From an uncultured Candidatus Altimarinota bacterium (GTDB lineage Bacteria; Patescibacteriota; Gracilibacteria; BD1-5; UBA6164), in contig CALLBL010000005.1 of NCBI GenBank assembly GCA_937999345.1, positions 8,196 through 72,195 on the forward strand: DNA of 64,000 nt, given 5' to 3'. The translations under genes were made by a program, and so were the position numbers. This document shows positions 34,134-61,171 of the stretch, one piece after another. The stretch's first letter is position 1. Each line of letters begins with the position of its first letter. Under the pieces are notes generated by a model. The model saw only the letters and a program-made list of their open reading frames with translations. It was not told the DNA's origin and searched no databases.

Positions 34134-34201
34134 AATCTATAAAATACTCTTAATAGCACTTGAGTAGCAAACAACTACGATGCTGGAGGAAGAACCCCCT
34201 C

Positions 34202-34235
34202 TGCCTTTCAGGCATCTCCCCCTATTAAGGGGAGA
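34202..34235. repeat. GC-rich palindromic hairpins of the same family as 15871-15942
   Basis: TGCCT-TTC-AGGCA (34202-34214) and TCTCCCC-CTATTAA-GGGGAGA (34215-34235). Confidence 0.6.
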
Positions 34236-34301
34236 TTAATAGGATTATTAGACCCTCTCGGAGTTACATATCTCCGTAATCAAAATACAAATAGAGTACT
34301 G

Positions 34302-34396
34302 GCTTTAGGTGGCAGCTTCATGCAAATAGCATGACCGAAAGCATATATATCTGAAAATTTCTGACTATAGAAGTTTCTAGGCATATATGCTTTTTT
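34302..34396 (+). promoter_or_regulatory. aspS leader: terminator hairpin with competing antiterminator carrying a T-box-like AGGUGGCA bulge
   Basis: GCTTT (34302-34306) can pair with AAAGC (34338-34342). That AAAGC is also the 5' arm of the terminator AAAGCATATAT...ATATATGCTTT plus T6 (34338-34396). Between them lie AGGTGGCAGC and the hairpin TCATGC-AAATA-GCATGA. Confidence 0.35.
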
Positions 34397-34419
34397 ATTT
34401 TTATATATAACTTTTTAAT

Positions 34420-36183
34420 ATGTTAAGAACGCACAAGTGTAATGAACTTACCAAGGATAATATCGGAGATGAAGTAACACTCTCTGGTTGGGTAAGCAAC
34501 AGAAGAGATCATGGTGGAATTATCTTTATCGATCTCAGAGATAGATACGGACTTACTCAAGTAGTTTTCGATCCAGAGGATGATAAGGCTTCATGGGAAA
34601 TGGCTGATAAATTTAGAAGTGAGTATGTAATCCAGGCAACTGGAAAGGTGAGAAGTAGACCAGACGGACAAACCAATCCAAATATGGAAACAGGGGAAAT
34701 CGAGGTAATTATATCAGAGGTAAAACTCCACTCAAAATCTAAAACTCCACCATTTGAACTAGATGAGCATGCAACCGAAGCAAACGAAGATATCAGACTC
34801 AAATATCGTTATCTCGATATTCGTAGAAAAAAGATTCTCGATTATATCAAGTTCCGTAGCAAGATGACTACCTATACAAGAAACTGGTTTACTCAGAAAG
34901 ACTTCCTCGACGTGCAGACTCCTATCCTTGCTAATTCTTCTCCAGAGTGAGCCAGAGACTTCCTAGTACCATCTCGTATCCACCCAGGACAGTTCTACGC
35001 ACTTCCTCAAGCACCTCAGCAGTTTAAGCAACTCCTCATGGTTGGTGGTATAGATAAATACTTCCAAATAGCACCATGTTTCCGTGATGAAGACCCAAGA
35101 GCAGATAGACATGCTGGTGATTTTTATCAAGTTGATTGTGAAATGAGTTTTGTAGAACAATCAGATGTATTTGATGTAGTCGAAGGATATCTACTCGATA
35201 TAACCAAAGATCTCTCAGATAAAAAAGTGATAACAGAAACAGCTGCAAATGATGTCATCAGAGAAGGAGGGAAGTTTTTTACTCTTACTCATCATGAAGC
35301 AGTAGAAAAATACTGATCAGACAAACCAGATCTCAGATTTGGTCTCGAGATGGTAGATGTACTTGATATATTTGCGAGAAGTACCAATGAAATATTTTCA
35401 GGTATCGCAGCTTATCCAGTAGCAAATAGAATCAAAGCTATCAAAGTACCAAATGGAGATAACGAATTCTCAAAAACTCAAATGAAAGGATTTGAAAGCT
35501 ATGTACGCAAGTTTGGAGCAAAAGGACTTGGGTATTTTCAAATGAAAGAAGACTGACTCAAAGGGCCACTGAATAAATTCTTCGCAGAAGCTGATTTAGA
35601 AGAAATAGTAAGTAGAACTGGACTCGAAGTTGGTGATGTAGTATTCTTTGGAGCAGGTGAGAGAGATCTCGTGTGTAACTATATGGGGAGATTTAGAAAT
35701 TATATAGCAGATATGTTAAAGCTCGCTGATAAAGATGAGATTTCTTTCTGTTGGATAACTGACTTCCCGATTTTTGAACAGGATGAAGATACAGGAAAAA
35801 TAGACTTTGAACACAATCCATTTTCTATGCCTCAGGGATGAATCGCAGATTTTGATAAAGAATGAAAAGATCTTCTCGATGTGATCGGATTCCAATACGA
35901 CCTCTCATGTAATGGATATGAAATTCTCTCAGGAGCTATCAGAAACCACGATGTAGATGCGCTGGTAAAAGCCTTTGAAAAAGTAGGAAGAAGTGCAGAG
36001 GAAGTAAAAACCAAGTTTGGGGCTGTATATGAAGCGTTTCAATATGGAGTTCCTCCACATGGATGATTTGCTATCGGTATCGATAGACTCATGATGATAT
36101 ATGTAGATGAGCACAACATTCGTGATATCTATGCATTCCCGAAATCAGGGAAGGCTCGTGATGAGATGATGAACTCTCCTATA
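34420..36183 (+). CDS. aspS: Aspartyl-tRNA synthetase (bacterial type); conserved C-terminal tail continues in another frame to 36239
   Basis: OB domain [84 protein letters not shown]. In-frame TAG at 36181. The expected tail LAVEQEQLDELHLEI is offset by one base. Confidence 0.9.
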
Positions 36184-39974: not shown

Positions 39975-40004
39975 AAGCTCCCTCCGACTTCGCAAGCTCA
40001 GCCA

Positions 40005-40071
40005 CCTCCCTCCATGAGGGAGGACTCTATATTTTGTGAGTTTATCAAAAGTTCCCCCTCATGGAGGGGGA
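40005..40071. repeat. GC-rich palindromic hairpins directly upstream of the DUF559 gene
   Basis: CCTCCCT-CCATG-AGGGAGG (40005-40023) and TCCCCCTC-ATG-GAGGGGGA (40053-40071). Further half-sites GCTCCCTCC (39978) and TAGGGGGAG (40091). Confidence 0.6.
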
Positions 40072-40122
40072 GAGAACTAGATACAGAATTTAGGGGGAGT
40101 TTAAAAAAGTAATGAATAAAAT

Positions 40123-58816: not shown

Positions 58817-59122
58817 TTATTTACTGAGTCCTTCTTTGAAGTGATCAAAAAGGTGATTAACAAGATCATCCATGTTTTTATAGTCTTCTCTTTCATATCT
58901 AAATGATTGACCATCAAGTGTTGCTTGTAGTACTCAATTAAATAGATTTTTCTTGTTTTTATCTATTTTGATTTCGAGTATTCATTCTGCATCATCTTTT
59001 TTATCAAATTGTTTTAAGTAGTTATCTACTTTTGAGTTCAGGTTTTCTTGTACGAGTCTTTCGATTACTTCCTTTGAGAAGTCTACTTCTTTTCCTGCGT
59101 GTATTTTTACTTGTAATTCCAT
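58817..59122 (-). CDS. hpf: Ribosome hibernation promoting factor (short HPF/RaiA/YfiA type)
   Basis: 101 aa. MELQVKIHAGKEVDFSKEVIERLVQENL...ILEIKIDKNKKNLFNGVLQATLDGQSFRYEREDYKNMDDLVNHLFDHFKEGL has the beta-alpha-beta-beta-beta-alpha pattern of sigma-54 modulation/HPF proteins. Confidence 0.8.
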
Positions 59123-59202
59123 ATTTAGTATTTGTTTTCTTAAAAAAATATAAGTACACAAAAATGATACTACAAACCCATATGCAAATCAAATAAAAAA
59201 TA

Positions 59203-59598
59203 AAAAAAAAGCCCAGCCGAAGCTGGGTGTCTTCACGAAGGAAGACGAGAGAGAATTTTAGCATCCAATTCTTAGTGAATGGTTTGCTTTTATTCCAACC
59301 TCTAGACTGCGCGATGTGGAGCACGACAAGTCTAGAGGGGCTACCGACAGATGGGCTGGTATCTGTCAGGTAAATTTCTCCAATATAACCAGGGCTAAAT
59401 CTGACTATATTGGAGACCACTAATGCGACAGTACCCTAAGGGAAGACATTAGTGAGTCGGTACACTGGCGAGAGCCTACCAACATGGTGAGCATTGCTCG
59501 CAAAGCTTGTTTCAAATTGGGGGTTGAAACGTACAAGCTCTGCGAGCACAGGAATGAAGCGAACTTCTTCCTAAACTCTTGGTAAGTAAAACTTACCT
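59203..59598 (-). ncRNA. Unassigned ~395-nt GC-rich, highly structured RNA gene with its own promoter and terminator
   Basis: At least 9 stable hairpins, e.g. a 16-bp stem UGCUCGCAGAGCUUGU/ACAAGCUUUGCGAGCA, an 11-bp stem UCUCCAAUAUA/UAUAUUGGAGA and a 10-bp stem CCUCUAGACU/AGUCUAGAGG. Ends in CCCAGC-UUCG-GCUGGG plus U9. No plausible ORF. Confidence 0.6.
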
Positions 59599-59605
59599 TA
59601 CAAAT

Positions 59606-59633
59606 ACTATAAATATAAATATATATAAGTCAA
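59606..59633 (-). promoter_or_regulatory. Promoter of the structured RNA
   Basis: Minus strand: TTGACT (59633-59628), 16 nt, TATAGT (59611-59606). Confidence 0.5.
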
Positions 59634-59737
59634 ATTTAATTTAAACAAAACTACTTAAAATAATAGAAAACAATTTTACAAAGCTCTCTAGAGCCATATA
59701 CTCGTATCTATAGTTTTAATATTTACAGATAAAAAGT

Positions 59738-61171
59738 ATGGAATACGAAAAGGTAATCGGTCTCGAGATACATATGAGAATAAAGTCTCAAACCAAGATG
59801 TTTTGTAGCTGCAAGAATGCGCTCGAACTTGCATCTGAGCCAAATGTAAACGTATGCCCAGTCTGTATGTGATTTCCTGGTATGCTTCCAGTGCTCAATA
59901 AAGAAGTAGTAAGGCTTGGTTTACTCTGAGGTATGCTCATGGGATGCGAAGTAAATAAACACTCTCGTTTTGATAGAAAGAGTTATTTCTACCCAGATTC
60001 TCCTATATCATTTCAAATTACTCAACTCTATGAACCTATCGTATGAGCTTGATCTGTAAAGGCTCTCGTAGATGGAAAAGAAAGAGATTTTGCTATTCAT
60101 CATATGCATCTAGAAAACGATGCAGGGAAACTCTCTCATGCAGGAGGAAAGACTCTTTGTGATTTCAATCGTGCTGGAAGTCCACTGATGGAGATAGTAA
60201 CTGATCCAGTTTTTCATGAAAAAGAAGAAGTAATGGAGTTTCTGAAAGAACTTCAAAAGATGATGCGTGCAGGATGAGTGAGTGATGCAGATATGGAAAA
60301 AGGACAGATGAGATGTGATGTAAATATGTCTATTCGTCCAAAAGGGAGCAGTGAACTCTTTAATAGAACTGAGCATAAAAATGTAAACTCATTCTCAGCT
60401 ATCGGGAGATGTATCGATGCAGAGTTTAAAAGACAAAAAAAGATAGTAGATTCATGATGAGAAGTAGACCAAGAAACCAGAGGGTGGAATGATGATACAG
60501 GTATGAGTAAATCTCAGAGGAGCAAAGAGGATGCAATGGATTACAGATATTTTCCTGAACCAGATCTCTTGCCACTCGACTTGGATGAAGACTTTATACA
60601 GTCATGTAGAGATTCTATGGTTGAGCTTCCTATACAAAAGAGGATAAGATACCTCAGTGAGTATAAACTCCAGGATGATGATGCTAGAATACTTACTAAG
60701 GATAAAGAGCTGAGTGAATACTTTGAGAAACTAGTAGAACTTACCTCAGATGCAAAAAAATCATGTAGTTATATCACGACAATATTACTAGCACTTATGA
60801 ATGAAAAAGGTTGAACTATATCTATATCAGATCTCAAGTTTGATATATCTGAGTTTGCTCAGGTTATAAAGCTAGTAAATGCTGATGAACTCTCATCAAC
60901 CAACTCAAAACAGGTAATCGAAGAGCTCTATAATAATGGATGAAAAGCAGATATCATAATAGATGAGAATAACCTCAGACAAAAAAATGATCTCGGTGCT
61001 CTCGAAGCTATAGTAGATGAGGTCATTGCTGAGTTTACATCTCAAGTAGAGGATTATAAATGAGGAAATGAAAATATATTCTGATTCTTTGTAGGACAGT
61101 GTATGAAAAAGAGTAGAGGACAATGAAATCCAAAGGTATTTAATCAAATGCTCAAGAAAAAATTAGGGTAA
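59738..61171 (+). CDS. gatB: Asp/Glu-tRNA amidotransferase subunit B
   Basis: [13 protein letters not shown]...KMFCSC...[17 protein letters not shown]...[10 protein letters not shown]...ITQLYEPI...[11 protein letters not shown]...[15 protein letters not shown]...[11 protein letters not shown]-terminal YqeY-like tail. Confidence 0.93.

Follow-up and report, generated by a model that had tools for sequence, protein, structure and literature searches.

A hypervariable array of C-loop hairpins upstream of an HPF-fold gene in Gracilibacteria is probably an uncatalogued structured RNA family

Introduction

Between gatB on the forward strand and a short gene labelled hpf on the reverse strand, the 64-kb stretch of contig CALLBL010000005.1 analysed here (the window) holds a spacer of 615 nt, its longest intergenic region, in which GC content reaches 0.45-0.50 over positions 59200-59600 against a background of about 0.30. 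The question raised by this locus is what such a conspicuous block encodes. An initial annotation of the window described it as a self-contained, uncatalogued and highly structured RNA gene read from the minus strand, and likened its position to that of the raiA motif RNAs. To our knowledge the regulatory RNAs of bacteria of the Candidate Phyla Radiation (CPR) are almost entirely uncharacterised, and our literature searches returned no description of RNAs of this kind, or of structured or small RNAs, in Gracilibacteria, and none of RNAs of this kind in CPR bacteria. The best relatives of the window's gatB are all Candidatus Gracilibacteria.

We describe here the gene signals, predicted fold, distribution and evolution of this block, which we refer to as the hairpin RNA. 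It is probably a genuine and independently expressed structured RNA family that has not been catalogued before, and it is best filed as a modular hairpin small RNA (sRNA) with conserved C-rich loops. The features that set it apart, a hypervariable modular architecture combined with a conserved vocabulary of loop words, were overlooked in the initial annotation.

Results

The block carries its own gene signals on the minus strand, and those listed previously are all present (Table 1): a TTGACT-16-TATAGT promoter, a UUCG-capped terminator running into nine uridines and, beyond it, a separate TTGATT-17-TATCAT promoter for the downstream gene. The terminator ends some 80 nt ahead of the start codon of that gene, which lies in the same orientation. 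Comparison with the corresponding loci of close relatives (members of the family, most of them among L081-L090) indicates that each member conserves all three signals or has a functional replacement for them. The promoter block, TTGAC(T/A)TA...TATAGT/TATATT, is kept in L081-L086 and L088, and every member is terminated by a GC-rich hairpin with a run of six to nine uridines, the sequence of which is different each time. The CTTGATTT...TATGATAAAAT block of the hpf promoter also occurs in relatives that have no hairpin RNA, where short spacers retain it, and the downstream gene's own promoter is ancestral. The stretch had been described as free of any credible open reading frame (ORF), and this agrees with our finding no conserved ORF, shared small ORF or shared peptide in the members' bodies. 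A dual-function RNA was rejected, there being no peptide common to the members and no conserved ORF of the delta-hemolysin kind.

The RNA of the window (about 400 nt) has a minimum free energy (MFE) of -158.7 kcal/mol, compared with -100.0 +/- 4.9 kcal/mol in dinucleotide shuffles (z = -12.0; the values for this RNA range from -10.6 to -12.0). Its fold has 11 hairpin loops, and among the stems are two of 16 bp and one with a UUCG cap, where at least nine hairpins with stems of these kinds had been anticipated, and with its own promoter and terminator the unit indeed has the properties of the self-contained RNA gene that was proposed. The longer-range interactions put forward at the same time fared less well. 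A multibranch helix between GUACCGAC and GUCGGUA is not upheld by L081, in which the 5' strand is identical and its 3' partner is missing, and a helix closing the 5' and 3' ends is recovered neither in the MFE fold nor in relatives. A loop-loop pairing of CUGGU with ACCAG is compensated in L081 (CUGA/UCAG), yet local pairing of these bases, inside their own hairpin, is also possible. The resemblance to the P15 region of RNase P RNA comes down to one simple hairpin formed locally, that with the CUCGCC loop in Table 1, whose stem and loop make up the block in question.

Table 1. Features of the hpf-gatB region of the window (MFE, minimum free energy).
Feature	Position	Strand	Basis or remark
gatB, divergent neighbour (promoter 59675-59702, +)	59738..61171	+	Pfam match
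Promoter of the hairpin RNA gene: -35 TTGACT, 16-nt spacer, -10 TATAGT	59606..59633	-	10/12 consensus positions
Predicted transcript, ~397 nt	59203..59599	-	5' end placed ~7 nt past the -10 hexamer; 3' end in the U-run
AU-rich 5'-terminal hairpin GGUAAGU-UUU-ACUUACC	59581..59597	-	MFE fold
UUCG-capped hairpin	59549..59573	-	MFE fold
Long hairpin, 16+5 bp, loop CCCCCAAU (C5 at 59519-59523)	59495..59548	-	MFE fold
Hairpin GUUGGUAGGCU-CUCGCC-AGUGUACCGAC	59456..59483	-	Fold; equals the P15-like block GGUAGGCU...GCCAGUG
10-bp hairpin CUCACUAAUG...CAUUAGUGG	59417..59455	-	MFE fold
16-bp hairpin UCUCCAAUAUAGUCAG...CUGGUUAUAUUGGAGA	59377..59416	-	MFE fold
Hairpin with loop ACCAGCCC (CAGCC word)	59341..59373	-	Fold; L081 counterpart UCAGCCC on a different stem
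Hairpin with loop CUCCACAU (CCACAU word)	59299..59338	-	Fold
Two 3'-proximal hairpins ahead of the terminator	59229..59296	-	MFE fold
Intrinsic terminator CCCAGC-UUCG-GCUGGG (CCCAGCUUCGGCUGGG, 59227-59212), then C and U9	59202..59227	-	Sequence signal
Separate promoter of the HPF-fold gene, TTGATT-17-TATCAT	59164..59192	-	Homologous CTTGATTT...TATGATAAAAT block
Short HPF/RaiA-fold protein, 101 aa, code 25, two in-frame UGA	58817..59122	-	Fold prediction

Rfam 15 was searched with the region 59100-59720 at the gathering score and at E<=10 with permissive filters, with the whole window at E<=0.5 and with seven homologous loci at E<=1. The region matched no family and gave only terminator-like or miRNA-like noise, the whole window gave a single tRNA and nothing else, and the seven loci gave no match; ARAGORN found no transfer-messenger RNA (tmRNA) in the window. 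With no match in the region or in the seven relatives, curated models, as far as they reach, rule out RNase P RNA, tmRNA, 6S RNA, signal recognition particle (SRP) RNA and raiA motif RNA, and the initial view that the locus encodes none of the first three holds.

The divergent order of hpf (-) and gatB (+) is kept in 18 Gracilibacteria genomes, and the hairpin RNA is missing from all 18. In 17 of them the spacer measures 130-322 bp with a GC content of 0.11-0.27; the spacer of the remaining one, L002, is 785 bp long (GC content 0.30) and is not similar to the hairpin RNA. A search by nhmmer with the hairpin RNA against 80 gatB-anchored loci gave no match, and two further relatives, with HPF proteins 72-73% identical to that of the window, also lack it, having spacers of 145 and 195 nt. 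Every contig that reaches far enough upstream and has an HPF 83-95% identical (L081-L090) has a spacer of 490-790 bp, and a GC-rich unit occupies the corresponding position in each; the contigs of two further homologues, P0004 and P0118, are too short to supply full members. The presence of the unit in these contigs, set against its absence from the 18 syntenic genomes and from the two relatives at 72-73%, therefore indicates on comparative grounds that the hairpin RNA is an insertion or innovation limited to a narrow clade, in which HPF identity is 83% or more, and not a conserved companion of hpf.

Beyond this locus, no second copy of a hairpin module was found in the window or in 117 related loci (0.9 Mb in total), and a dispersed palindromic repeat of the REP/BIME or GC-cluster type was rejected on this basis. 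The only blastn match among phages and plasmids was a 42-nt AT-rich chance hit. Viral contigs scanned with three conserved islands gave 0, 0 and 14 matches, the 14 (with a 15-mer) being at chance level, and a metagenome scan with the conserved hpf-promoter pattern gave seven chance matches, none near hpf, in a collection that apparently does not include the sample from which L087 derives.

Some of these loci have peculiarities of their own. L087 (2461-3000; JGI 3300002059 SR3_1000939) has the same RNA body as L086 and is missing about 140 nt containing the promoters of gatB and of the RNA, such that the gatB coding sequence abuts the 5' hairpin; this gap reflects either a real loss of the promoters or an error of assembly. 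L086 itself has a 10-N scaffold gap within the hpf promoter region (at about 2960-2970). The 785-bp slot of L002 (3216-4000; CP060226.1, a complete Gracilibacteria/Peribacteria genome) is filled by something else, possibly a small ORF, and the 322-bp spacers of L010 (3679-4000) and L011 (3680-4000) have in common a conserved long AU-rich hairpin around ...GGGGCCAAUCAUAGAUUGGGA..., which may be a different small element that occupies the same slot in another lineage of Gracilibacteria.

Within the clade, the bodies of the RNAs are 260-580 nt long and contain 6-13 hairpins, and in eight non-redundant members their folds are more stable than those of shuffled sequences (z from -8.4 to -12.6). Their sequences have little in common. 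The RNA of the window connects to L081 alone by nhmmer, and in all-against-all comparison the detectable match to another member covers just 0-28% of any body. What can be aligned comes as islands: L081 matches L088 over 76 nt (92% identity) and the window over 33 nt (97%), and there are two identical 15-mers. The adjacent hpf genes retain 83-93% nucleotide identity between members, and 70-84% at third codon positions; because these positions are so similar while the bodies barely align, the bodies evolve at least as fast as synonymous sites, by replacement of stems and by gain and loss of modules. Individual hairpins illustrate this. The 5' hairpin opens the RNA of every member, each time with a sequence of its own. 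A word, AG(N)UUUAGG, is common to the window, L088, L086, L081 and L089 ahead of the UUCG-capped hairpin. The orthologue of the long 16+5-bp hairpin in L088 has another stem and the loop CCCCCACAUA, and the stem of the 10-bp hairpin has been swapped out in L081 via compensatory changes. The block of the CUCGCC hairpin is 97% identical to L081, and in L088 and L089 the same loop is carried on other stems.

Pairing is preserved through this turnover. Covariation in homologous spacers had been suggested as a check, and where the central parts of the window RNA and L081 can be aligned we count 36 pairs unchanged, 8 kept after a one-sided change, 15 kept after two-sided changes and 4 broken. Closer comparisons point the same way: the near-identical L082 and L083 differ by nine substitutions, five of them unpaired, and all four of those in stems convert A-U to G-U, and L103 differs from L081 by one compensatory pair (C-G to U-A), one A-U to G-U change and one loop change. 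Of the one-sided stem substitutions in such close pairs, six keep a G-U on the sense strand and one can pair on the antisense strand only.

Whilst the stems come and go, the loops draw on a recurring vocabulary of C4-6, YCCCACAU, CAGCC(C) and CUCGCC. Hairpin loops contain 35.8% C, compared with 24.6 +/- 2.5% in shuffles, and only 6.9% G; CCC is present in 23% of loops versus 5% in shuffles. Runs of CCCC are unpaired in 35 of 44 cases and runs of GGGG are paired in three of three. Relative to dinucleotide shuffles the enriched words are CCCC (z=4.0), CCACAU (z=5.8), CUCGCC (z=6.8) and CAGCC (z=7.7), and 6-mers common to at least three members are found in unpaired contexts at double the rate seen in stems (46% against 23%). 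The clearest cases are seldom paired (CCCCCA unpaired in 8/9 occurrences, ACCCCC in 6/7, CCACAU in 5/5 and CUCGCC in 4/5). The same words recur on different scaffolds: CCACAU caps five unrelated stems of 8-22 bp in four members, CUCGCC three distinct stems in four members and CAGCC three stems, and C5-type loops are found on eleven hairpins covering all eight members. Closure of such stems by CCUC...GAGG, as mimicry of Shine-Dalgarno (SD) and anti-SD sequences, was considered and rejected, since GAGG, GGAG, CCUC and CUCC show no enrichment (z between -0.9 and +0.6).

Of the two flanking genes, gatB was identified correctly at the outset, being matched by Pfam. The case of hpf is more complicated. 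At the level of sequence the label finds no backing: Pfam Ribosomal_S30AE matches none of 18 homologues, NCBIfam has no match, a profile search of the PDB gave noise only, and NCBI annotates the homologues as hypothetical. An AlphaFold model, built from an alignment of 30 homologues with P0001 as the first row, is confident (predicted local distance difference test, pLDDT, 84; predicted template modelling score, pTM, 0.71) and has a beta-alpha-beta-beta-beta-alpha topology. The best structural matches in the PDB are nearly all hibernation factors, namely Thermus Protein Y, the HPFs of S. aureus, Listeria and A. baumannii, RaiA and chloroplast PSRP1, with template modelling (TM) scores up to 0.76-0.77, a root-mean-square deviation of 2.4 A and sequence identities of 10-17%. 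Because a confident model coincides with matches to hibernation-factor structures, the label is valid at the level of the fold, and the modelled product is a short and very divergent protein of the HPF/RaiA type. This 101-aa protein of the HPF/RaiA/Protein Y fold is conserved across Gracilibacteria (homologues P0001-P0119) and is missed by sequence models, so that hibernation factors in this group amount to an annotation gap.

Discussion

The question posed by the locus can be answered in part with some assurance and in part only provisionally. The explanation that we consider best is that of a lineage-restricted non-coding RNA (ncRNA) gene in which pairing and loop words are under selection and which displays C-rich loops in trans; taken as a whole, we judge it about as apt to hold as to fail. 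A sigma-70-type promoter would produce a transcript of 260-580 nt (about 397 nt in the window), consisting of a protective 5' hairpin, 6-13 very stable and near-perfect Watson-Crick hairpins and an intrinsic terminator. Selection would maintain the pairing, the GC-richness, the expression signals and the C-rich, G-free loop words, leaving stem sequence and the number and order of hairpins to turn over fast. The stems would then be a stable, freely evolving scaffold presenting several C-rich loops simultaneously. These might titrate an RNA-binding protein that recognises C-rich loops, following the logic of CsrB and RsmZ, or they might kiss or pair with G-rich sites in RNAs encoded elsewhere, following that of the cuckoo, RNAIII and Rsa RNAs. 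Such a multivalent mechanism acting in trans is possible, and we put it forward tentatively. Occlusion of SD sequences in the organism's own mRNAs ranks as unlikely, there being no SD usage in the 56 start regions of the window. With neither SD sites nor a G-rich target in evidence within the window, we therefore favour multivalent display to some partner.

Several points weigh against this explanation. The loop assignments rest on MFE predictions, and the ends of the transcript are predicted from consensus signals. The eight non-redundant members come from one narrow clade, and some recurrences of the motifs, those of the window with L081, are orthologous and not independent. G-U pairs make up only about 7% of stem pairs and the sense and antisense strands have equal MFE. 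G-runs that could serve as complementary sites are rare in the 64-kb window and none stands out. Finally, no SD signal is seen in the 56 start regions (G at 5-10% per upstream position, GGAG once and GAGG once).

An explanation that dispenses with RNA function altogether would regard the block as a cluster of GC-rich DNA palindromes, selfish or mutational in origin, that came by chance to lie between two promoters, in the manner of quasipalindrome template switching, yeast mitochondrial GC clusters or REP/BIME arrays. The near-perfect Watson-Crick stems and the low G-U content sit well with this, and because G-U pairs are rare and the antisense strand folds equally well, the stems alone do not reveal which strand, or which molecule, RNA or DNA, has been selected; a test of strand by the G-U asymmetry of whole folds was likewise uninformative. 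Turnover at or above the rate of hpf third codon positions, with bodies that are mostly unalignable, and the recent, lineage-restricted insertion can also be counted in its favour. Palindromes of this type would, however, be expected in more than one place, and the modules have no second copy in the window or in some 0.9 Mb of related loci. All members have a dedicated promoter and a functional terminator despite differing terminator sequences, the loop words are strand-specific and better conserved than the stems, and recent substitutions favour the sense strand by six to one. The strand is thus marked by the promoter, the terminator, the C-rich loops and recent G-U-tolerant substitutions, and we consider a palindrome cluster unlikely.

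We also think it rather unlikely that the unit acts in cis, as a leader or attenuator of the HPF-fold gene. Here the terminator would be regulated and read through, and the hairpins would set stability or termination; the arrangement is suggestive, given that the unit lies directly upstream of hpf in the same orientation, and hibernation factors are typically regulated by growth phase. Against this, hpf keeps its own ancestral promoter beyond the terminator, as it does in relatives without the element, and at least 20 relatives express hpf without it. The strong hairpin and U-run at the end of every member, together with a body that has no conserved antiterminator and no core resembling a ligand pocket, are also hard to reconcile with attenuation. 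The unit is very unlikely to be a highly divergent housekeeping RNA or a raiA motif RNA that has diverged. It has the size and GC-richness usual for rnpB or ssrA where the genome is AT-rich, the block that proved to be a local hairpin has a likeness to P15, and the downstream gene encodes an HPF/RaiA fold. No covariance model responds to the region at E<=10 or to the seven relatives at E<=1: neither the type A nor the type B model of RNase P RNA, with their conserved P4/CR-I/CR-V core, nor those of tmRNA (defined by a tRNA-like domain and a tag reading frame), 6S, SRP or raiA RNA (the last presumably RF03072). RNase P RNA would also have to be hypervariable between genomes whose HPF proteins are 83-95% identical, and a raiA motif RNA would have to lack a common core and consist of a linear string of hairpins. 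Such RNAs have strongly conserved cores (51 positions in raiA), whereas our members share 0-28%, and the evolutionary pattern that we reconstruct from their sequences is incompatible with RNase P RNA, tmRNA, 6S, SRP or raiA RNA.

Returning to the reading of the unit as a trans-acting hairpin array, there are several described systems with which it may usefully be compared. The raiA motif RNA of Bacillota and Actinomycetota is about 200 nt long, has helices P1-P6, two pseudoknots and 51 highly conserved nucleotides, lies upstream of a raiA/hpf gene in 66% of cases and has a function that is unexplained (PMC10861870). Like it, the hairpin RNA is a stand-alone structured ncRNA gene directly upstream of a raiA/hpf-type gene; unlike it, the hairpin RNA has no conserved core or model match and its spread is at genus level in Gracilibacteria. 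The suggestion of a raiA-motif-like RNA with conserved hpf synteny is thus not sustained, given that members share so little and that the spacer is without the RNA in the 18 syntenic genomes, and the parallel in position may be incidental.

The architecture described to date that we judge closest, by analogy, is that of the cuckoo family, with RNAIII and the Rsa RNAs also close. Cuckoo RNAs (RSs0680 / alpha-r14) of Alphaproteobacteria consist of two to four adjacent hairpins, each with the anti-SD-like loop CCUCCUCCC, and genomes of Rhizobiales and Rhodobacterales have several copies each (PMC4615179). Their stems show mostly compensatory changes, their conservation ends at about genus level and covariance models perform poorly on them (PMC4615179). 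The hairpin RNA shares with them modular adjacent hairpins in variable number, a C-rich loop motif as the sole conserved sequence, compensatory stem changes, conservation limited to about genus level and poor performance of covariance models. It differs in having 6-13 hairpins over 260-580 nt, several words in place of one, a single fixed locus and a host among the Gracilibacteria with an SD-less genome. The exact CCUCCUCCC is not found in the member sequences that were folded, the nearest being UUCCCUCCCCCUCCU in a loop of L086 and CCUCCUCCU in a stem of L089. Because motif, hairpin number and taxon all differ, the hairpin RNA is not a cuckoo RNA.

In S. aureus, RNAIII and the Rsa sRNAs use unpaired UCCC or C-rich boxes to pair with SD sequences (PMC2790875, PMC2837412). 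The absence of SD usage from the start regions of the window and the lack of any sequence or covariance-model relation set the hairpin RNA apart from these, and it is not an RNAIII or Rsa homologue. Common to both are a promoter and terminator of their own, a 5' hairpin, C-rich loop motifs and variable helices, and RNAIII, with 514 nt and 14 hairpins, is of similar size. The CsrB, RsmY and RsmZ sponges, in which a repeated GGA/ANGGA loop motif is bound by CsrA or RsmA, are likewise stand-alone genes in which the number of hairpins varies, each hairpin displays the short motif in its loop, and the scaffold sequence, unlike the motif, is not conserved. The loops of the hairpin RNA are C-rich with little G, and the likeness is in architecture alone. 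The hairpin RNA is unusual in size, with up to 13 hairpins, in having several distinct loop words and in occurring in a recoded, SD-less CPR genome.

In this locus we have a clear case of an RNA gene that would owe its function to displayed loop motifs and helix stability rather than to overall sequence, and it is for this reason that catalogues built on covariance models would miss it. A modular hairpin sRNA with C-rich loops in a genome without SD sites implies either that the anti-SD explanation is not general or that the partner, be it a protein, an RNA or something in a host, is elsewhere. Gracilibacteria also prove to encode an HPF/RaiA-fold protein that escapes sequence models, and the position of the RNA gene upstream of the gene for it provides a second system in which to ask about the raiA-motif arrangement. 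One might go further and suppose that a CPR lineage independently gained a stand-alone RNA that is the functional counterpart of raiA motif RNA. If this were true, a hibernation factor and an adjacent ncRNA would be a recurrent functional pair, represented here in a stripped-down form with multivalent C-rich loops. In a more speculative variant, the C-rich, anti-SD-like loops would act on the SD-bearing mRNAs or ribosomes of a host cell, which would also account for the arms-race-like turnover in episymbiotic or predatory bacteria that are themselves SD-less. We regard this proposal, its host-target variant included, as improbable.

Additional observations

UGA is a sense codon in the window: ORFs of at least 100 aa sum to 32,355 aa under code 25 or 4, compared with 4,855 aa under code 11. 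The 56 start regions have A/T-rich leaders, with T at position -1 in 70%.

Two other intergenic regions were considered as further C-loop arrays and rejected, both having ordinary hairpins in which runs of C or G are paired. The first is a leader of about 280 nt (34134-34419, +) upstream of a gene resembling aspartyl-tRNA synthetase that starts at 34420. It has a long AU-rich hairpin with a T-run at its end and contains UUUAGGUGGCAGC, which is vaguely reminiscent of a T-box; searched alone, the region matched neither the T-box nor any other Rfam family even at E<=5, and it may be an unrecognised leader. The second, at 39975-40122 (+), has a GC content of 0.44 and two hairpins with G/C runs, CCCUCCAUGAGGGAGG and CCCCCUCAUGGAGGGGG; its sequence is unrelated to the hairpin RNA, and the hairpins are probably terminators or small hairpin elements.

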